64,000 nt of DNA from a virus. The notes beneath the pieces are model-generated. The model did not search any database. It was not told the DNA's origin and was given only the letters and a program-made list of their open reading frames with translations. Shown here in pieces: positions 1,000-19,689 of this stretch. Each line of letters starts with the position of its first letter. The stretch's first letter is position 1. Location of the stretch: positions 32,001 through 96,000 of the IMG/VR virus record IMGVR_UViG_3300031746_000002, one strand, 5' to 3'. The position numbers and the translations under genes are program-made.

Positions 1000-1671
1000 A
1001 TGCCACCACTTCAAAAAACTGTAAATTTGATTATGCCAAACATTGAATTAAAAAAGGGTATGATACCAATGTATAAATCGAATGAGCGAACTCCGTTCTA
1101 TTATAGTATTGTTGGAAAATTAACTGCAAAACTTGATCCAAAAATTTGCGCAGATAATTTTACTGATCATAGAATTGGCTATGATCATTGTGGATTAATA
1201 GATAAAGAACCATTATATATGCTTCATGAGCATCCACCAAAAGCATCTAGAGACGAACTCAGTCAACTTTTTTGGCAACGAAATATGTTAAATCAGCACG
1301 ATATCGAAATATGGGAATATAATGATGTTTTACCAGATTCAACAATAGATAAAATAATTGCAGAATTTTGGAATCTTGCAGAATTGCGTTGGGATGATAA
1401 GCAGAAAAAATTTGTAGGTTTAAAATATAACTGGCCTGCAATATTTTTATCACCATTTGCATTGATTGGACTTGGTGTAAAAACAAATGCAATGCATTGT
1501 GCAGAGTCTGTTTTTGAATCGTGGAAACATGAAGATATTATTCTTTCAAAACAAGGTCCAAAAGATTGTTTAGTATGTCCCAATGAAATCATAAATTGTG
1601 GTTTATTTAAAAGAGTTTACACAATTAAAATGATTAGCAAAACGAACAAAATAATTATTACATATGCATAA
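1000..1671 (+). CDS. Permuted papain-like amidase (YiiX/NlpC-P60 permuted family)
   Basis: His (YDHCGL) precedes KYNW and the catalytic Cys (MHCAESV), the permuted order. Confidence 0.65.
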   Translation: MPPLQKTVNLIMPNIELKKGMIPMYKSNERTPFYYSIVGKLTAKLDPKICADNFTDHRIGYDHCGLIDKEPLYMLHEHPPKASRDELSQLFWQRNMLNQHDIEIWEYNDVLPDSTIDKIIAEFWNLAELRWDDKQKKFVGLKYNWPAIFLSPFALIGLGVKTNAMHCAESVFESWKHEDIILSKQGPKDCLVCPNEIINCGLFKRVYTIKMISKTNKIIITYA

Positions 1672-1675
1672 CTTA

Positions 1676-1744
1676 GGGGTCAGTTTCTTATCTCAATGAA
1701 ATGGGGTATTACGACATAAAGTATCGTAAAAAGAAACTGACCTC
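1676..1744. other. Branched stem-loop after the lysis genes
   Basis: GGGGTCAGTTTCTT...AAGAAACTGACCTC outer stem enclosing two small hairpins. Confidence 0.55.
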
Positions 1745-1990
1745 GCGTGTTCTTTAAATAGTCTATTAGTTATCATAATCTATAGTTTCAGGCTTCGTTC
1801 TGCTCATTTATAATGGTTCTGTAATAGATATTCATATCTGCCTTAAAAATGACACAAATAAGCTTATCTATATAATAAAGGAAAAGCATATGGACAACGG
1901 TGATGTTGTAGCAATTATAGCATTTATAATCATTGCAATTTTAGTAATGATTGAGGATAGTATTCGCAGTAATAAAAATGATAAATTATA

Positions 1991-2035
1991 AATTATTATG
2001 TTTACGTTTTCACCGAAATATAGTATAATATAACT
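1991..2035 (+). promoter_or_regulatory. Early sigma70-type promoter, copy 1
   Basis: TTTACG(2001)-N17-TATAAT(2024); about 40 bp nearly identical to the copies at 4874 and 61531. Confidence 0.85.
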
Positions 2036-2065
2036 AAGGAAACAGAACAAAGGAGAAAACGAAAA

Positions 2066-2410
2066 ATGATAAATGAAATCTTCTTAGAAAAAGCAAGGAA
2101 GTTAATCACTGCAAAATTAACAGAAGCAACTAAGGAATTAGGATGCCTTCCTCCTGAAATAGGTACCATTCGTTATTCCGCAGATAAGTTCAGATTTAAA
2201 GTTGAAATCTTTGAAGGCCCATCAGCTCAAAATGATACTCATGGAGCAACAGTTACTGTAATTGACCATGACCAAAAATTCAGGCTTCCAAAAATTGGAA
2301 TTTGTAGTTTGATAAAAATCAACAGAACAAAAGCAGTCATTCAATGTGATGCAACGAAGAAACGATATCTCCTTAGAATTAGCGCAATGGAAAAGTACGC
2401 TATAAAATAA
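2066..2410 (+). CDS. Hypothetical early protein
   Basis: ORF with AAGGAG RBS directly after the early promoter. Confidence 0.7.
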   Translation: MINEIFLEKARKLITAKLTEATKELGCLPPEIGTIRYSADKFRFKVEIFEGPSAQNDTHGATVTVIDHDQKFRLPKIGICSLIKINRTKAVIQCDATKKRYLLRISAMEKYAIK

Positions 2411-2428
2411 AGGAAAAGGAGAACAAAC

Positions 2429-2899
2429 ATGAAAGTGGTGAACAAAACAAATCTCGACACAAACCGCCTCAGAAATCTTTTCACTGAAACAAAAGGTAAT
2501 GTCAAATCTAGCGGATTATTGGTAATCGTTTATAACTGTAATCGATTAGCGCATGGTATGGCTTGGAATGTTAGGTCTTTCAGAATGAACCATAAGCAGA
2601 ATTATATAAAATGTAATGATGCTATCGAACTATGGATTAATACTGCAAGACAATATCCTATAACGACCATTTTAAGATCAAGAGATGGTTATAAATCATT
2701 TATGTGTATTGATCCTTATAATTTGATTACTCTCATTTTTCTACATGAAATTGGGCACGTTAAGGATTATCAAAAAGGTAAATCATCAAAATATAGACAA
2801 ACACATTGTGATGAATATGCTATAAAACAAGCAGAAAAATATGGGATAGCATGGGAAACAAGTAGATTAGTTCCTGTTATAATAAAGGAAAAGGAATAA
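2429..2899 (+). CDS. Putative HExxH zinc metalloprotease-like protein
   Basis: FLHEIGH motif; RBS. Confidence 0.55.
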   Translation: MKVVNKTNLDTNRLRNLFTETKGNVKSSGLLVIVYNCNRLAHGMAWNVRSFRMNHKQNYIKCNDAIELWINTARQYPITTILRSRDGYKSFMCIDPYNLITLIFLHEIGHVKDYQKGKSSKYRQTHCDEYAIKQAEKYGIAWETSRLVPVIIKEKE

Positions 2900-2988
2900 T
2901 ATGAAACTTAAAGATTTGATTTGTATTGGAATAGCAGTTATTTTAGGACAGTGGTTAGTTCAATTAATTTTAAATAAAGGAGGAAACA

Positions 2989-3900
2989 ATGGATTTAACA
3001 CAATTAAAGAATTATGCAGAAACAACAAGGGATATACCAAAAGAAATAAATGCACAGCAGATGATGGCTGAACTTGCATCAGCAGTAAATATTCCTGAAA
3101 AGCATAGCAGGAAATATAGAATTGAACACGAGATAATAAAGCAAGGAACTCCTGTTACTCTTATTAGTATGCGTAATGCTATTTTGATGGGATATAAATC
3201 ACTCAATATTATTTTTGATACTGATTTAAAAATTCATAAATTAAAATCAAAAGATGGTGGGCTTCTTATGAGTGACCATCCACAGGAAATATTCCTTGCC
3301 CATGAAGGATTAAAAGCTGCACATGGAGTAGTTCTCATGGGTGGTTTAGGATTAGGCTATGCAGCAACGAAGCTTGCACAAAGGAAAGATATTTCAAGGA
3401 TATACGTAATTGAAATTGATAAAGAAATAATCAAGCTAATTAAACCACATTTGGGACCAAAGATAACAGTAATAAATGAAAGTATCTATACATTCTTACG
3501 ATGCTATAATTACAAAGTTGATTATGTCTTTTTAGATACATGGTACCAGACTGGTGAAAGTACATATTGGGACACTGTATTTCCTTTAAGAATATTAGCA
3601 AGAAAAAGATTTGTTAAATCTGAAAAGGATATATTCTGCTGGGGAGAAGAAGAGATGTTAGGACAGGTAAAAACATCAATGTGTCATGTACTCAGCGGTG
3701 ATTTGAAACCCTGGAATAAAGCATTGTATGCAGTTCATGTTGCAATCATACGTAAATTAACTAAATCAGATGGATTAAGAGACATACCAACTGTTGTTAA
3801 TAAATTCTTCACAGATGTTGGTTCAAAGGAATGGGAGAAGGAATGGCATTTTTCTAAGTGTCTTAAAATTGCTGATAAAAACTATAAGGAGCAAAAATGA
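2989..3900 (+). CDS. Class I SAM-dependent methyltransferase / spermidine synthase-like protein
   Basis: VLMGGLGLG, YVIEIDKEII and DYVFLDTW motifs. Confidence 0.75.
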   Translation: MDLTQLKNYAETTRDIPKEINAQQMMAELASAVNIPEKHSRKYRIEHEIIKQGTPVTLISMRNAILMGYKSLNIIFDTDLKIHKLKSKDGGLLMSDHPQEIFLAHEGLKAAHGVVLMGGLGLGYAATKLAQRKDISRIYVIEIDKEIIKLIKPHLGPKITVINESIYTFLRCYNYKVDYVFLDTWYQTGESTYWDTVFPLRILARKRFVKSEKDIFCWGEEEMLGQVKTSMCHVLSGDLKPWNKALYAVHVAIIRKLTKSDGLRDIPTVVNKFFTDVGSKEWEKEWHFSKCLKIADKNYKEQK

Positions 3901-4163
3901 ATTTAGTAACTCGTGTAGAAAGAAATGAAAACAATAAACCTTTATCTTGTGATGTAACTTATAATGGGGTTACTATTACTTTTGCTATAGTTAAGAATGG
4001 CGAGATAAGAGATATAGGCAGAAGTTGTAGCTCAAACATACTTTATGACTATGATCAATTCAGAGTATCAAAAATAGTTTATTATAAAATGTTGAAACAA
4101 GCAATGGGAATATTAAAAGGGAAGGTTAAGCATAATGAAACAACACAAACAATTACCAAATAA
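3897..4163 (+). CDS. Hypothetical protein
   Basis: ATGA-coupled ORF with RBS. Confidence 0.6.
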   Translation: MNLVTRVERNENNKPLSCDVTYNGVTITFAIVKNGEIRDIGRSCSSNILYDYDQFRVSKIVYYKMLKQAMGILKGKVKHNETTQTITK

Positions 4164-4321
4164 TCCTTATCATATTACAGATAAGAAATCAAAGAAACAT
4201 TATTGGATAAAAACTCATTGTAGTACTTGTGGTATTCATAAAGAATTAAATACTAGTTGGCAATTTGAAATATGTTATAGGTCTTGTATACAAAGGAATT
4301 ATATACCTTAAGGAGGAAACA

Positions 4322-4534
4322 GTGAAAAAAATTCTAGATGCAACTTGGTTTACTGCTGGAAGCAATTGTATTGGTATTGTTATTATCCAAGACTTAATAA
4401 CAAAAGAAAAGAAAGCATATATTGGATTAGGTAAAGGTCTTGACGAAGGCGAAGATGCAACTGAAATCACAAGTAAAGGTAATCAATTACCATTGGAAAT
4501 ATTACAAGAAATTTGTGCTAAATTAAAAGTATAA
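4322..4534 (+). CDS. Hypothetical protein (GTG start inferred)
   Basis: AGGAGG RBS before in-frame GTG at 4322. Confidence 0.6.
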   Translation: MKKILDATWFTAGSNCIGIVIIQDLITKEKKAYIGLGKGLDEGEDATEITSKGNQLPLEILQEICAKLKV

Positions 4535-4539
4535 TATAT

Positions 4540-4611
4540 TTAGCCTGTGGGTTTTCAGAAGCTTAGTTCACCACTTTCCTTCTGATGAAAGTTTTCCAGC
4601 CCACAGGCTAA
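4540..4611 (+). ncRNA. Putative antisense hairpin sRNA A
   Basis: Stem TAGCCTGTGGG/CCCACAGGCTA, inner stem TCAGAAG/CTTCTGA, 17-nt loop complementary to AAAGTGGTGAA sites in early genes; TATAAT at 4530. Confidence 0.55.
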
Positions 4612-4628
4612 CCTTAAAGGATAAGACA

Positions 4629-4856
4629 ATGAATAATTTACCTGATGGATATGCAGAATTCATAGATAATGTAATGCAACATTTAATGGACCGTGATTAT
4701 AAAATTGTAAAAGTTATTACAATACCAGTTTTTGGGCAAATAATGCAAGTCAATGTTTGCGAAGTAGTTGGTGGAAAAGATGATGGATTAATTTTCGGTA
4801 AAGCTCAGGGTACTAATATTGCAATATTATTGGATAAGAAAGAATATGAAAGATAA
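4629..4856 (+). CDS. Hypothetical protein
   Basis: ORF with AAGGA RBS. Confidence 0.6.
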   Translation: MNNLPDGYAEFIDNVMQHLMDRDYKIVKVITIPVFGQIMQVNVCEVVGGKDDGLIFGKAQGTNIAILLDKKEYER

Positions 4857-4873
4857 CAGGTGTAAAATAAATG

Positions 4874-4918
4874 AATTATTATGTTTACGTTTTCACCGAA
4901 ATATAGTATAATATAATT
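4874..4918 (+). promoter_or_regulatory. Early sigma70-type promoter, copy 2
   Basis: TTTACG(4884)-N17-TATAAT(4907); repeat of copy 1. Confidence 0.85.
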
Positions 4919-4961
4919 AAGGAAAAGGAAACAAGGATAAATCGAAACAAAGGAGGAAGGT

Positions 4962-5966
4962 ATGGAAAACCCCAAAGTGGTGAAACTCCTAACATCAGAT
5001 GAAGTTAGGAGCAGGTTAGTAAGTGATACAAAAGGAGAAGCAGTAGAAACAATTACAATGAAAGAGTTTGAATTTGTTGATGAAGCAAAGGATGACATAA
5101 CAATTCTTTCATTAAGGAAAAAAAGATTTGAAGTTGAACCAGATGCACTCGAATCAATCTTCAGGCATGTTGGAGTACCTACCAATTTCTTTTTACGCTG
5201 CAGTAAATCAACGAAGCAGAGTATCTCAAAACAATTCCTTGAAACAAATCCAAAAGAAGTACAGGTGCTTTATGGAGAAAATAGGATTAAAAATATTTTC
5301 TCAACAAAAACACCTTATGTTCCTACACTTGAAGTATTTGATGCAGCCCAAAAATCTGTAGGGAAATCGATGATTGAAACTTACACGCAGAGTAAAGGTA
5401 AGTTCATAATCAACTGGATAACTGAATATGCATCACATCCAGTGAAAGCAGTAAATGACATTTCAAAAGCTGGCATTACAATTGAAATAGGAAAACCAAA
5501 CGTACATTTCGATTTCGGGATTTGTGTAGGTGGTTTCATTTTCCGGCTGATATGTACTAATGGAATGATAACATCAAGGAACGAAATCACACAGGTCAAA
5601 GGTAGTTCAAAGGAAGAAATACTTACTAATATTAAAGGATTAGTAAGTGAGTCCTATGAAGCAGTTACAAAAAAAGAATTGCCAAGATTTGTTCATATGG
5701 CAACTGTACCAATCGACGATCCCGCTAATGCAGTTCACCAGCTGGCAAGGCAGAACCATATTCCAAGAGGTCATATAAAAACATTGCTTGACAGAGTACC
5801 ATCACTCGGGCAGAAGCCCACAATGTATGGAGTTATAAATCTGATAACTTCATATGCAAAAGAAATTCCGGATTATTACCAGAGAAGGAAAGTTCAATCA
5901 TTGGGCGGCGAAGTATTAAGAACTCAGCACAAATGCCCGACATGTCTCCATACTCTGGCATCATAA
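4962..5966 (+). CDS. DUF932-like phage protein
   Basis: GFIFRLICTNGMI motif and TMYGVINLITSYA helix. Confidence 0.65.
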   Translation: MENPKVVKLLTSDEVRSRLVSDTKGEAVETITMKEFEFVDEAKDDITILSLRKKRFEVEPDALESIFRHVGVPTNFFLRCSKSTKQSISKQFLETNPKEVQVLYGENRIKNIFSTKTPYVPTLEVFDAAQKSVGKSMIETYTQSKGKFIINWITEYASHPVKAVNDISKAGITIEIGKPNVHFDFGICVGGFIFRLICTNGMITSRNEITQVKGSSKEEILTNIKGLVSESYEAVTKKELPRFVHMATVPIDDPANAVHQLARQNHIPRGHIKTLLDRVPSLGQKPTMYGVINLITSYAKEIPDYYQRRKVQSLGGEVLRTQHKCPTCLHTLAS

Positions 5967-6028
5967 TCCGAAACAGGGAGTTAATCACTCCCTGTCTACT
6001 GGGGATAATCTCCCAGTACTGATGAGGA
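5967..6028 (+). ncRNA. Hammerhead ribozyme, type II; predicted cleavage after C5996
   Basis: TCC-GAAA-[CAGGGAGT/ACTCCCTG]-TC-[TACTGGG/CCCAGTA]-CTGATGA-GGA: full catalytic core and three stems. Confidence 0.9.
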
Positions 6029-6035
6029 AGATAAA

Positions 6036-6272
6036 ATGAAAATAGATTACATCAAAAAAGAAAATAAAATTATAACTCAGATAGACATACTTCATAAAGG
6101 TATATTATACAGCTTTATGAATAATGAAGGCAGAGCTATTGAAATTAGTAGACGAACTAAAGGTAAATGTAAATCACCGAATTATGAACCTGGAATTGCT
6201 AAAGGATATTATGTTGATATAATAGAACTTGCTAATAAAGCTATTATGAAAAGTTTAAAGAAAAAGGCTTAA
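6036..6272 (+). CDS. Hypothetical protein
   Basis: ORF whose RBS overlaps the ribozyme 3' end. Confidence 0.6.
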   Translation: MKIDYIKKENKIITQIDILHKGILYSFMNNEGRAIEISRRTKGKCKSPNYEPGIAKGYYVDIIELANKAIMKSLKKKA

Positions 6273-6294
6273 TAATATATAAAGGTATAAAGCA

Positions 6295-8103
6295 ATGAAT
6301 AAGAAAGCATTACAAAATCAAAAACAAAAGCAAGAAATACTTGAAGAACTTGCTAAACACAATATCAATATATCTATTGGTGATACTATATTAACTAGTG
6401 ATGGAGACCTTTATGTAATTGATAAAATAGATAAAGAAGGTATTCATTTAAAAAATCGTTTAGAAGATGACCCTGAACAAAGCCATTATGGAACTATAAA
6501 TGTAAAGGATTTTATAAGCAGAGATTATATCAAGCTGGATAAACCTATAGAAGAGTTTGAAAAAGAACTAGCTAATAATTTTTTAAATCTAGATAAATAT
6601 GAAGAAGACAAAACTGAAAGCACTTCAACTGAAATAGCTGTGAAAAGTTCAAAAGCTCAATTGGTTAATTTGAAAAATTCTTTGGAAGATAAAAAAAGAA
6701 ACATAATGATTTTAGAAAGAATACTTTATGCTAAACGAAACTATATGCAAAGTATAGTTCATGATTTAGAAGAAAAAGTTGAAAAAATATATAAAGTCTT
6801 AGACATCATTGAATTGTATCTTGGCATTTATGAAACAATTATTCAAATACAAAAAGGACCTAAAGCAAAGGATAGTGACCCAATAACATTTCGCCAAGCA
6901 GTATTATTTATGGATGAAGAAGTTGGTGACCCAGAAGATCAAGGTTTAGATTTTAAAAAGATAGAACAGTTTGATGATTGGTTATTAAAAAATTATAAGA
7001 AAATACTTACAGAAGAAAAATGTGTTGTTGTTATGAAACCACGAAGACATGATAAAGATTATGGTGGAAATTGGTATGAAAATTTTATTATGAATAGAGA
7101 AAATCATAGAACATATTTTTTGATTAGGAATGGAATGAATTTTTATAGGATAGACTCTAATATTCATGTTGATAAGTTATTTTTTCCAGGCAAAGATGAA
7201 ATGGAAGAAATATATAAAATAGCTAATGAAGATTTTGGCCATGACAAGGATGAAGCAGAAGATATAATATTAAGCTATAAACGTAATGCATTAATGATGC
7301 AAGGTTTAATTGATAGGACTGAAATATTTCACCCATTGCCTCATTACATTAATATATTCGATCAAAAGACTTATAAAAAAGCAATTCAATTTGTGAGAGA
7401 TGGGGAAACATGTTTACCTGATGGACATAAATCATTTAAAGACTGGAAAGAAGCATTAAATTCAAAAATAAAAATAGGTTCAAGGATTGTATTTTCTGGT
7501 TTTGGACATGGTGAGTTTAGTACTTATGAAAGCAGTCATTATGCTAATCAAGCAAAATATTATCATAGGTTTCCTTGTGTACCAGAAAATATGCCAGAAC
7601 GAGGAATTTATACAGTAGAATTATATTATACATCAAACAGCAGATATAGTGAAGGTAAAGAAATGTTGTTATGTAAATATGCCCAAGGTGGTGAAAGACG
7701 AATTGGTTGGGGTTATGAAGCAATTGAAAGAAAAAATAGGACATCATTTTATTTATATCGAAATGACTATTGCGTGTTTAACTATGATATGTTAGAATTA
7801 GATGATATCGAATTTTATATAAACAGCAGGATTGATAGGGAAAATTATCGTGAGAATATTCCTTTATTATGGGAAATTAAAAAACAACGGTTAAAAGAAC
7901 TTGAATGGGAAAAAGGATTTGTAGAACATTTGAAATTGGAAATTGATTACGATAATAAAAAGGAATTAGAAAAAATAATATGGGACTGTATTACTTGGTG
8001 GAAAAATAAAGTTATTTGGAAACGTCCCATAATGAAAGATGATGCGAAAGCATTGAGAATGATTAAAGGAAGAATAAATAGAATTATAAGGGAGAAAAAA
8101 TGA
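6295..8103 (+). CDS. Hypothetical coiled-coil phage protein
   Basis: 602-aa ORF behind a GCTTAATAAT motif. Confidence 0.7.
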   Translation: MNKKALQNQKQKQEILEELAKHNINISIGDTILTSDGDLYVIDKIDKEGIHLKNRLEDDPEQSHYGTINVKDFISRDYIKLDKPIEEFEKELANNFLNLDKYEEDKTESTSTEIAVKSSKAQLVNLKNSLEDKKRNIMILERILYAKRNYMQSIVHDLEEKVEKIYKVLDIIELYLGIYETIIQIQKGPKAKDSDPITFRQAVLFMDEEVGDPEDQGLDFKKIEQFDDWLLKNYKKILTEEKCVVVMKPRRHDKDYGGNWYENFIMNRENHRTYFLIRNGMNFYRIDSNIHVDKLFFPGKDEMEEIYKIANEDFGHDKDEAEDIILSYKRNALMMQGLIDRTEIFHPLPHYINIFDQKTYKKAIQFVRDGETCLPDGHKSFKDWKEALNSKIKIGSRIVFSGFGHGEFSTYESSHYANQAKYYHRFPCVPENMPERGIYTVELYYTSNSRYSEGKEMLLCKYAQGGERRIGWGYEAIERKNRTSFYLYRNDYCVFNYDMLELDDIEFYINSRIDRENYRENIPLLWEIKKQRLKELEWEKGFVEHLKLEIDYDNKKELEKIIWDCITWWKNKVIWKRPIMKDDAKALRMIKGRINRIIREKK

Positions 8104-13173: not shown

Positions 13174-13218
13174 AATTATTTTGTTTACGCAATTATTCTA
13201 ATATGGTATATTATTATT
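13174..13218 (+). promoter_or_regulatory. Early sigma70-type promoter, diverged copy 3
   Basis: AATTATTTTG-TTTACG(13184)-N17-TATATT(13207), preceded by TG. Confidence 0.7.
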
Positions 13219-13253: not shown

Positions 13254-13440
13254 AAAGGAAAACGGAATGAGTAAAGGAAAACGGAACATAATTCAAACCT
13301 ATAAGTCAATCTTGCCAGTTCATAACTTTGCTGGTATTCCAACTGCCTATCCAATACAACTTATTATAAATATTTTTTCAACCTATGATGTTAACATCGT
13401 AGGTAATTCAAGGAGGAAAACGGAAAATGAAAAACGGAAA
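13254..13440 (+). repeat. Repeated AGGAAAACGGAA motif (13256, 13275, 13414; partial at 13431)
   Basis: Direct repeats over the RBS/start of ORFs 13267 and 13427. Confidence 0.8.
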
Positions 13441-13759: not shown

Positions 13760-13817
13760 TTTTGGGAACTAAAGTGGTGAAGTACTGACGAGCACAAATT
13801 TAAGGAGGAAACAATTA

Positions 13818-14447
13818 ATGCTTAAAAGTCTTTGGGACAGGGTTAGAAACAATGAGGCTACAGAAGAAGAACGAAATGCATTTGCTAGCGAAATTAAAAT
13901 TATTGTTAAAGCGCGTAAATCAAAAATCAATAAAGAAGTCGCTAGAAGTACCATGAGAGAGTATGATGATTTATTAAATGAAGTTTGTAATCATACTTAT
14001 ATGTGCGTCATAAAGTACAAATATAACTCTAAGATTACAACAGTTGTTTATAAACTAGTAGACCAATACACTATTTATCTATACAGGAAAACAAGACGTA
14101 ACAAAGTTATTCCTCCTGAGTTAATAGATACTTTTACATCATCTCAACGTCCTGAAAATTTACGATATTTTAGAAACGATCCCAATAATGAAAATTTAAG
14201 CTTTGATGAAGTATTAGCAAATAAAAAAGATTGTGTTGAAAATGATTTAATATACGATAATTACATAGAAAAAATAAAAGGGGTTTTAATAAAAAATCAT
14301 GACACTGTTTCATTAAAAATACTTGAAGGAAAATTAAAAGGATATACTGATGCAAAGATAGCTAAGACATTAGGAGTAAGTACACCCAAAGTAAATTGTA
14401 TTAAACGGGAAAATCTTATGGAGGCTGTTTCACAAGTATTATGCTAA
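13818..14447 (+). CDS. Phage sigma70-family (ECF-like) sigma factor
   Basis: Region-2-like EYDDLLNE segment and C-terminal HTH GYTDAKIAKTLGVS. Confidence 0.65.
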   Translation: MLKSLWDRVRNNEATEEERNAFASEIKIIVKARKSKINKEVARSTMREYDDLLNEVCNHTYMCVIKYKYNSKITTVVYKLVDQYTIYLYRKTRRNKVIPPELIDTFTSSQRPENLRYFRNDPNNENLSFDEVLANKKDCVENDLIYDNYIEKIKGVLIKNHDTVSLKILEGKLKGYTDAKIAKTLGVSTPKVNCIKRENLMEAVSQVLC

Positions 14448-19057: not shown

Positions 19058-19265
19058 TATTGGCGAAGAAGATGAAGAAGTTTGTTTAGAACATAAAACT
19101 TCTAATCTAAGCGGATCAAAAATGCCTTGGCACAGAGATGGAAAATTATTTTGTGAAGGTTGTGGAAAAGGAGTTAGTTCAGTTTCAGTAGTTATTGAGG
19201 GGGCATTTTGCGATACTTGTATTATAGGTGTAATGAATAAAAGGATTATAAAGAATAAAAAATGA
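19026..19265 (+). CDS. Small Cys-rich zinc-finger protein
   Basis: CEGC and CDTC pairs; GAGG RBS. Confidence 0.5.
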   Translation: MASLLKKTTCDIGEEDEEVCLEHKTSNLSGSKMPWHRDGKLFCEGCGKGVSSVSVVIEGAFCDTCIIGVMNKRIIKNKK

Positions 19266-19627
19266 AAATACGACATTTACTTTTAGATTTTGAAGGAATA
19301 CAAAAAAATCTTAAATTACTTGATGACCCTAATAAGCTTGCTATAGTAATGATAAGAGCAGCTGAAGTGGCTTCAATGACAGCATTAAGCTGGAGCTTTC
19401 AAAAATATTTACCACAAGGTTTAACTGTTACTGTGTATTTAGCTGAAAGCCATTTATTAATATCAACAACACCAGAAAATAAAGAATGTAATATTGATGT
19501 AAGCGTTTGCAAAGAATCAAGTGATTTAGAAGCAGTAGAACAATATTTCAAAAAATTATTTAAACCAAAAAATATTATTAAGAATTGTATTGAACGTGGT
19601 TCTAAAAATATAGAAATAAAAGGATGA
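19262..19627 (+). CDS. speD: S-adenosylmethionine decarboxylase proenzyme-like
   Basis: RHLLLDF, QGLTV, LAESH autocleavage motif, DVSVC, ERG. Confidence 0.75.
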   Translation: MKIRHLLLDFEGIQKNLKLLDDPNKLAIVMIRAAEVASMTALSWSFQKYLPQGLTVTVYLAESHLLISTTPENKECNIDVSVCKESSDLEAVEQYFKKLFKPKNIIKNCIERGSKNIEIKG

Positions 19628-19630
19628 TAT

Positions 19631-19689
19631 GGGACTGGCTTTGGTTGGGCTATTTAATTCCGTTTTCCTAGTTTAGCCGAGCCAGTCTC
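19631..19689 (+). ncRNA. Putative antisense hairpin sRNA B
   Basis: About 21-bp stem with several G-U pairs (favouring the + strand) and loop TTTAATTCCGTTTTCC complementary to the repeats at 13256-13425. Confidence 0.55.

Follow-up and report, generated by a model that had tools for sequence, protein, structure and literature searches.

A candidate antisense hairpin in an early operon of an uncultured phage and its complementary tag at early gene starts

A hairpin located in an early operon of an uncultured phage (hairpin A) was found to display, in its apical loop, the complement of a short tag that recurs at the starts of early transcription units. The chances that hairpin A serves as an antisense regulator embedded in this operon, c4-like in action and outside the c4 family, are judged to be about even. 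An earlier sequence-only reading had described the hairpin as a trans-acting sRNA that represses translation of the phage's own early regulon through a shared seed, and this interpretation is partly supported, by a tag that is selected at the nucleotide level beside early starts, by conservation of the hairpin in one relative, by the joint absence of hairpin and tag in another, and by the presence of a second hairpin.

The window analyzed here, a 64,000-nt stretch of DNA, is part of a 138.9-kb virus record with a CheckV completeness of 68%, found in sediment metagenomes; the phage is uncultured. The record is AT-rich and carries 185 of its 196 crude ORFs on the + strand, indicating that transcription proceeds almost entirely from that strand, and that the strand of hairpin A is the transcribed one. 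The seven sequencing runs listed consist of DNA contigs, none of them registered as RNA. A contig from run X7 spans hairpin A (4319-4748) with 0 differences to the window, and one from run X4 (4420-4930) does so with one difference and one gap, while a contig from run X5 links 4120 to 4563 via 39 letters that correspond to the sequence of L006, one of the two relatives described below. Among the differences listed between run contigs and window, none falls at hairpin A or its targets. The features discussed are collected in Table 1.

Table 1. Hairpins, pairing segments, target sites and early promoters in the window
Feature	Coordinates	Strand	Description
Early promoter copy	2001..2029	+	drives the unit containing hairpin A
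Target 1	2431..2443	+	GAAAGTGGTGAAC, codons 1-5 of ORF 2429 (second gene of the P2001 unit)
Hairpin A	4540..4611	+	outer stem 13-14 bp, asymmetric internal loop, inner stem 6-7 bp, 17-nt apical loop
Apical loop of hairpin A with seed	4562..4579	+	core GTTCACCACTTTC at 4566-4578
Second unpaired segment of hairpin A	4591..4599	+	GTTTTCCAG, 3' internal loop
Early promoter copy	4884..4912	+	drives ORF 4962
Target 2	4963..4984	+	TGGAAAAC, CCC, AAAGTGGTGAA; codons 1-8 of ORF 4962
Variant early promoter	13184..13212	+	TTTACG, 17 nt, TATATT
Hairpin B targets	13256..13425	+	three exact AGGAAAACGGAA (13256, 13275, 13414) in the leader and RBS of ORF 13427
Target 3	13771..13781	+	AAAGTGGTGAA in a non-coding gap, 37 nt ahead of the ORF 13818 ATG
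Hairpin B	19631..19689	+	long G-U-rich stem; loop TTTAATTCCGTTTTCC, antisense to GGAAAACGGAA
Early promoter copy	61541..61569	+	drives the ligase gene
Target 4	61620..61630	+	AAAGTGGTGAA, codons 5-8 of the NAD-dependent DNA ligase gene

The early units are headed by a repeated promoter (TTTACG, 17 nt, TATAAT, with extended identity), copies of which were located at 2001, 4884, 61541, 66885, 76595 and 80555. As the sequence-only reading had stated, there is one tag site in each of the four units of the window (2001, 4884, the variant 13184, and 61541); in the whole record, five of seven early-promoter units carry a site. The distance from promoter to site varies from about 45 to 550 nt. A search with the early-promoter pattern returned two contigs, both unrelated.

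Hairpin A begins 5 nt past the stop codon of a 70-aa ORF (4322-4534) and ends ahead of the Shine-Dalgarno sequence of a 75-aa ORF (4629-4856), 17 nt from its ATG. Its internal loop consists of 12 nt on the 3' side. The predicted fold has an energy of -31.4 kcal/mol (z = -5.55), which was equalled by 0/200 shuffles; folding strength is equal on both strands, a point against reading it as an antisense RNA. Consensus scans revealed neither a promoter nor a terminator belonging to hairpin A, and none was found between the 2001 promoter and the hairpin. Hairpin A thus appears to sit inside the early polycistronic transcript begun at 2001-2029, and the discrete trans-acting sRNA of the sequence-only reading gains no support from these scans. 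Hairpin A and target 1 (2431) are, as in c4 systems, located in one early unit, and the fold leaves both of its pairing stretches unpaired, with the apical loop holding the seed and the internal loop the second segment.

An Rfam cmscan of 4450-4700 with E-values up to 10 gave four chance-level matches, none of them to C4, and at the gathering threshold the whole window yielded tRNAs and one hammerhead, and nothing else. Several other identities of hairpin A were considered and rejected. An intrinsic terminator would have a GC-rich stem with a U run after it; the stem of hairpin A is followed by AACCTTAAAGG, and a + strand terminator scan of 1600-6400 gave none. A hammerhead, prompted by the internal CTGATGA, was discarded on the missing remainder of the core, the negative Rfam result, and the lack of the motif in L006. 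Other self-cleaving ribozymes were sought together with it (hammerhead, twister, pistol, hatchet), with no Rfam match. The neighboring ORF 4629 (75 aa) gave three weak hits, one of them to an NHL-repeat protein; a role as an RNA chaperone next to hairpin A was dismissed, since the hits are weak and to repeat proteins.

Further structured elements were noted in this part of the genome. An element at 1673-1745, between ORF 1000-1671 and the 2001 promoter, folds with -29.8 kcal/mol in a 90-nt frame; it consists of a 14-bp outer stem around two small hairpins, has no U tract, and its loops have no repeated complement elsewhere. A type II hammerhead at 5966-6036 immediately follows the stop codon of ORF 4962, 1.4 kb downstream of hairpin A, and scores 52.4 bits (gathering score 37). 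The homologous element of L006 (2113-2180) falls below the Rfam gathering score; changes in its stem I are compensated, and GTA replaces GTC at the cleavage site.

The coordinates originally given for the loop core and its complements were all correct: GTTCACCACTTTC at 4566-4578, its 13/13 complement GAAAGTGGTGAAC at 2431-2443, and the 11-mer AAAGTGGTGAA at 4974, 13771 and 61620. The window contains five exact copies of AAAGTGGTGAA, four on the + strand and one, antisense, in the loop of hairpin A; no further exact copy was found in the rest of the 138.9-kb record. A genome-wide count had been proposed as a check in the sequence-only reading. For the window, the expectation from dinucleotide shuffles is 0.08 copies, and 0/100 shuffles reached five. 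Under a third-order Markov model, 0.28 copies were expected on the + strand versus the four seen (p = 2e-4), and AAAGTGGTGAA ranks 279th among repeated 11-mers, so that copy number alone is modest evidence. Placement near start codons was confirmed, the exact + strand copies being located at +3 (ORF 2429), +12 (ORF 4962), +12 (NAD ligase) and -47 (ORF 13818). A fifth site, with one mismatch at which a G.U pair is possible, was found at position 108695 of the record (76695 on the scale of the window), at +24 of a gene that is the first after the 76595 promoter. This gene, whose start region (record 108671-108705, window scale 76671-76705) lies outside the window, is referred to below as the 76671 gene.

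When loop duplexes were computed for 185 translation-initiation regions, these five sites were the top five, with energies of -15.8 to -21.9 kcal/mol versus a median of -8.4, and target 1 formed the best duplex (-21.9 kcal/mol). Accessibility of the tag is no better than background, the 11-mers having opening energies of 1.6-4.2 kcal/mol versus a median of 3.5. In RNAcofold calculations, the ORF 2429 and 76671 targets gain 5.4-5.7 kcal/mol even when the hairpin is opened; the ddG of 0 obtained for three targets is uninformative, as loop-to-strand pairing with the stems kept is not representable in this method. Net pairing energies, estimated as the duplex minus about 3 kcal/mol each for opening of loop and target, would be -9 to -16 kcal/mol.

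Codon usage indicates that the tag matters as a nucleic acid. Wherever the tag lies in coding sequence (four sites), its reading is AAA GTG GTG (Lys-Val-Val), and GTG is a rare valine codon in this phage (196/2403, 8.2%). The crude proteome contains 20 KVV tripeptides, of which the four located at residues 2-9 of early genes are all encoded by AAAGTGGTG, whereas the use of GTG in the remaining ones is 0/16. The occurrence of the rare GTG-GTG in all four N-terminal KVV tripeptides indicates that the tag is selected as a nucleic acid, and selection at the nucleotide level is supported. Against a tag in this position, a ligase that is 71% identical to that of the phage (P0010) begins MDIRKTVERLL and has no KVV.

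Ligase domains were confirmed in the product of the NAD-dependent DNA ligase gene (61608-63422), the nearest named cellular relatives of which belong to the Spirochaetota (44-49% identity), a hint at the lineage of the host or at the source of the gene. ORF 13818-14447 had been taken for a sigma gene, an assignment that was not upheld: it has no sigma match in Pfam or PHROG, and its best Pfam match (E-value 0.0059) is to an unrelated domain. For ORF 2429, a search among 5.8 billion clusters returned only itself. In ORF 4962, an 8-bp hairpin (4986-5011; CTCCTAAC ... GTTAGGAG) directly follows the tag, and its version in the relative L007 (CTTCTAAC ... GTTAGAAG) shows a synonymous and compensated change, so that selection seems to act on an mRNA structure within the first 17 codons. 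A large hairpin was also noted directly after the first gene of the 80555 unit (record 113058-113125, about 81058-81125 on the window scale). Its 5' arm, CAAGGAAAGTGAAAGTGGG, resembles the tag of hairpin A and forms the third-best duplex with loop A genome-wide (-19.8 kcal/mol).

A second pairing segment had been described in the sequence-only reading, with GTTTTCCA (4591-4598) complementing TGGAAAAC (4963-4970) to give a bipartite duplex over the start codon of ORF 4962; these coordinates, too, were accurate. In its full extent, GTTTTCCAG, the segment complements in the correct order both TGGAAAAC at 4963-4970 of ORF 4962 (8 nt) and CTGGAAAAC of the 76671 gene (9 nt), where CTGGAAAAC adjoins the tag on its upstream side. 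Matches of at least 9 nt were obtained with 4/3000 shuffles and with 5/3000 random genomic 14-mers. The bipartite duplex is therefore statistically real in this genome, and does not extend to the hairpin of L006, which lacks the second segment and has CTCCAC in its place. The reverse complement of hairpin A reads CTGGAAAAC, 13 nt, AAAGTGGTGAACTAAG, and parallels CTGGAAAACGGAAAAGTGGTGGAATTAAG of the 76671 gene. As this likeness extends past the 11-mer, it suggests that hairpin A may have derived from an inverted copy of the start of an early cassette.

Two relatives were found, both of them short JGI metagenome contigs (L006 and L007), and the comparison thus comprises three genomes. L006 encodes a homolog of ORF 4962 with 83% amino acid identity, and a hairpin with a predicted energy of -32.1 kcal/mol (z -5.6) occupies the matching place. 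The loop (4563-4580) is identical at 18/18 positions, in surroundings that are 75% (75-aa gene and leader) and 82.5% (ORF 4962) identical. The 29-nt inner hairpin carries five substitutions, of which four make up two compensated pairs and the fifth affects the first loop base; two of the six inner pairs are altered on both sides, and 12/12 cells are paired. The outer stem of L006 has no recognizable sequence in common with that of the window, yet forms 12 pairs. The gene upstream of the hairpin differs between the two genomes, which places the hairpin at a mosaic junction at which both arms were replaced coherently. A shuffle control for stem covariation is powerless with two sequences (126/500). 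In the target gene of L006 the tag is intact, and the flanking codons are altered. In these two hairpin sequences, the seed is therefore more conserved than the rest of the RNA and the stems are compensated, and the invariant loop with changed but paired stems supports the view that hairpin A is a conserved structure.

L007 (80% amino acid identity) has the promoter along with both genes, the 75-aa one and the target, and lacks a hairpin upstream of the 75-aa gene. At the position of the tag it carries AACGAAGTAAA, in which 4/11 letters, and also the encoded peptide, are changed. Loop and tag thus persist together in L006 and are missing together from L007; a matched substitution in loop and target was seen in none of the three genomes. 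Scans of viral contigs with single proteins (ORF 4962, ORF 6295, ORF 2989, alignment A1) gave no relative. A 23-mer loop pattern had no match, a 16-mer pattern matched 32 viral stretches and an 18-mer 10 stretches of genome contigs, with a hairpin in none of them, and a search of a phage collection gave no match.

When the whole genome was scanned for folds, a single further long, large-looped hairpin between genes was obtained, tRNA, ribozyme and terminator-like stems aside. This hairpin B shares the design of hairpin A and has a predicted energy of -29.5 kcal/mol (z -5.1) as + strand RNA versus -16.3 (z -2.0) as - strand RNA, a difference that is due to its G-U pairs. Since it folds well only as + RNA, the RNA of the transcribed strand would be the folded species. 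The sequence to which its loop is antisense, GGAAAACGGAA, was seen in 4 copies versus 0.05 expected (rank 27), three of them at ORF 13427 and one at +14 of the 76671 gene. In the RBS of ORF 13427, the tag falls between the Shine-Dalgarno sequence and the AUG. The tags of hairpins A and B abut each other in two genes, the 76671 gene and the L006 target gene, giving the composite GGAAAACGGAAAAGTGGTGAA, that is, GGAAAACGGAAAAGTGGTG(A/G)A; in the 76671 gene the composite tag reads CTGGAAAACGGAAAAGTGGTGGAA. No other site gives as good a bipartite match to hairpin A as the start of this gene, which matches hairpin B as well. In L007, the B half of the tag is retained and the A half is lost. The gene right upstream of hairpin B (19262-19627) is S-adenosylmethionine decarboxylase-like (Pfam AdoMet_dc, E = 5e-22). 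Farther along the window, a weak and long Rfam tRNA match (26771-26892, 31.6 bits, 122 nt), not called by ARAGORN, follows an ARAGORN tRNA-Leu at 26692-26769.

These findings are consistent with the following model. Hairpin A would be a functional RNA structure, transcribed within the early polycistronic message that the 2001 promoter drives. In five early units, its 17-nt apical loop would pair with the 11-13-nt RNA tag AAAGUGGUGAA, located in the leader or the first codons. In this phage, the second unpaired segment, GUUUUCCAG, would pair in addition with the adjoining CUGGAAAAC, and hairpin B would read the neighboring half-tag GGAAAACGGAA. Because the regulators come from the early transcripts themselves, the likeliest effect would be delayed negative feedback on early genes. 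At sites located at about +4 to +13, pairing would block initiation by preventing 30S binding. For the remoter sites, at -47 and +24, which are not in the usual region of initiation block, steric hindrance of the ribosome is unlikely; nucleases may attack the duplex there instead. From the sequence we infer pairing, repression rather than activation, and the mode of action (in trans or within the transcript).

A broader version of this model, which we regard as rather doubtful, is that an approximately 21-nt composite RNA 'operator', GGAAAACGGAAAAGUGGUGAA, is carried on the early-promoter cassettes across the start and the first codons, and that hairpins A and B, in different operons, read its adjoining halves. 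The two would then form a combinatorial, RNA-only timer of early-gene shut-off, and would represent a widespread kind of self-regulation in phages that is as yet undescribed in print.

Among the alternatives, the one that fares best, and that is still unlikely, is that hairpin A is a processing or structural element of the early mRNA, such as an RNase III-type site or a 3'-end stabilizer, the likeness of loop and tag being due to descent, with no pairing involved. Intergenic hairpins in T7 early RNA provide an analog. In favor of this reading, hairpin A is located at a mosaic junction, and the reverse-complement hairpin parallels the start of the 76671 gene, as an inverted duplication would; the hammerhead downstream also shows that intergenic RNA is processed in this phage. 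However, a relic would not be expected to keep all 18 letters of its loop while stems and flanks diverged, or to be lost jointly with the tag in L007. Descent also leaves unexplained the rare GTG-GTG at four gene starts, and the match of hairpin B to the other half-tag.

It is improbable that AAAGTGGTGAA is instead a protein-binding site, either a DNA operator or roadblock or the site of an RNA-binding repressor or nuclease, of which the loop copy would be another instance. Three sites lie about 45-65 nt past early transcription starts, a plausible position for a roadblock, whereas the other two are separated from their promoters by about 400 and 550 nt, and yet are near start codons. A DNA-binding protein would recognize the inverted copy in the loop equally well, and hairpin A shows no strand asymmetry, but the sites have a strong + strand bias (4-5 copies versus 1), and recognition of duplex DNA gives no reason for selection to keep the flanking stems through full turnover of their sequence. 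A protein that binds the tag as RNA would in turn miss its complement in the + strand loop. The operator motif that the sequence-only reading had offered as an alternative, TTTCACC in the promoter spacers, is not kept: it is replaced by TTCTCATC in L006, by TTTTCGGAG in L007, and by TTTTCGTCG in the phage's own 76595 promoter. A DNA operator was rejected on this lack of conservation together with the spread of promoter distances (about 45-550 nt). No protein emerged as a candidate binder; the 75-aa ORF next to hairpin A has only its weak hits to repeat proteins.

Coincidence, with an unremarkable stable hairpin whose loop complements a moderately repeated word by chance, is very improbable. 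It draws on 11 control elements of about 70-90 nt, each of which has 3-34 chance complement hits of at least 10 nt in the record (longest 10-15 nt), and on the 344 different 11-mers in the AT-rich record with at least three + strand copies and an antisense copy. As single complements of 10-15 nt are common in the controls, the case for hairpin A rests on evidence other than copy number: placement, the codon test, loop conservation, co-loss in L007, and hairpin B are mutually independent, and agree.

Downstream boxes have been described at about +4 to +24, the range in which the tag lies, and in a last and barely credible alternative the tag would be a similar enhancer that pairs with helix 44 (the penultimate stem) of the host 16S rRNA, the loop mimicking the rRNA and competing for the tag. 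Helix 44 of the 16S rRNA of one gammaproteobacterial MAG contains GGTCACCACTTTG, which matches GTTCACCACTTTC at 11/13 positions; the tag would pair with this segment over 10 bp (-14.6 kcal/mol), and the segment is present in 10/401 sampled genomes of that MAG's phylum. Set against this, an 11/13 match in a 1.5-kb RNA has a chance of about 2% per rRNA, with three examined, the segment occurs in 0/401 and 0/151 sampled genomes of two other phyla, the latter of which includes a Leptospiraceae MAG (the Spirochaetota being nearest to the phage ligase), and rRNA pairing of downstream boxes is reported as refuted (PMC4611024).

If the embedded antisense regulator is real, a large phage with no recognized lysogeny genes in the parts examined would co-regulate its early units, the DNA ligase included, by RNA pairing, and rare codons would be the price of a tag written into the first codons. 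Nature would also have supplied the material for its analysis: five targets, two regulators, a variant that has lost both hairpin and tag (L007), and a variant with swapped stems (L006).

The closest known parallel is the c4 RNA, which is described as phage-encoded in the operon of its target, with short complements, probably displayed in loops, that block translation around the RBS (PMC12197685, PMC8198154). The likeness to c4 of P1 and P7 consists of a regulator that lies in the operon with a target and has short loop complementarity near the RBS. c4 RNA pairs through two segments (a'/b'), which is paralleled by the loop and second segment of hairpin A. It differs in that hairpin A matches no Rfam family at E-values up to 10, the C4 family being presumably RF01695. 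While c4 controls one operon in the immunity region of a temperate phage, the tag is found here on five dispersed early units and mostly in coding sequence, and hairpin B reads a neighboring half-tag. The maturation of c4 by RNase P has no detectable counterpart here.

P22 sar and lambda OOP are small antisense RNAs that lower the expression of a regulatory gene of their own phage (PMC12197685). They are encoded on the opposite strand of a single target, to which they are fully complementary, whereas hairpin A and its dispersed targets lie on one strand, and only 11-13 nt are shared with each. In loop-seed sRNAs of Gram-positive bacteria, such as RNAIII and RsaE of S. aureus, pyrimidine-rich loops pair with purine-rich sequences at or after the RBS of several mRNAs, and duplexes of this type can be cleaved by RNase III. 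Hairpin A resembles them in the predicted pairing of a loop seed at or past the RBS of several mRNAs. These RNAs are cellular, however, each having a promoter and a terminator of its own, and their seed is of the UCCC type, whereas the seed of hairpin A is unrelated to that type and specific to a tag on the phage's own promoter cassettes. A literature search turned up no account of a comparable tag system spanning several early units, although one may exist in print. Most of the antisense RNAs known from phages act on a single gene, for immunity or lysis-lysogeny, in a temperate phage; if the embedded regulator proposed here is real, regulation of several targets through one 'seed', as practiced by bacterial sRNAs, would also organize the temporal program of a phage.
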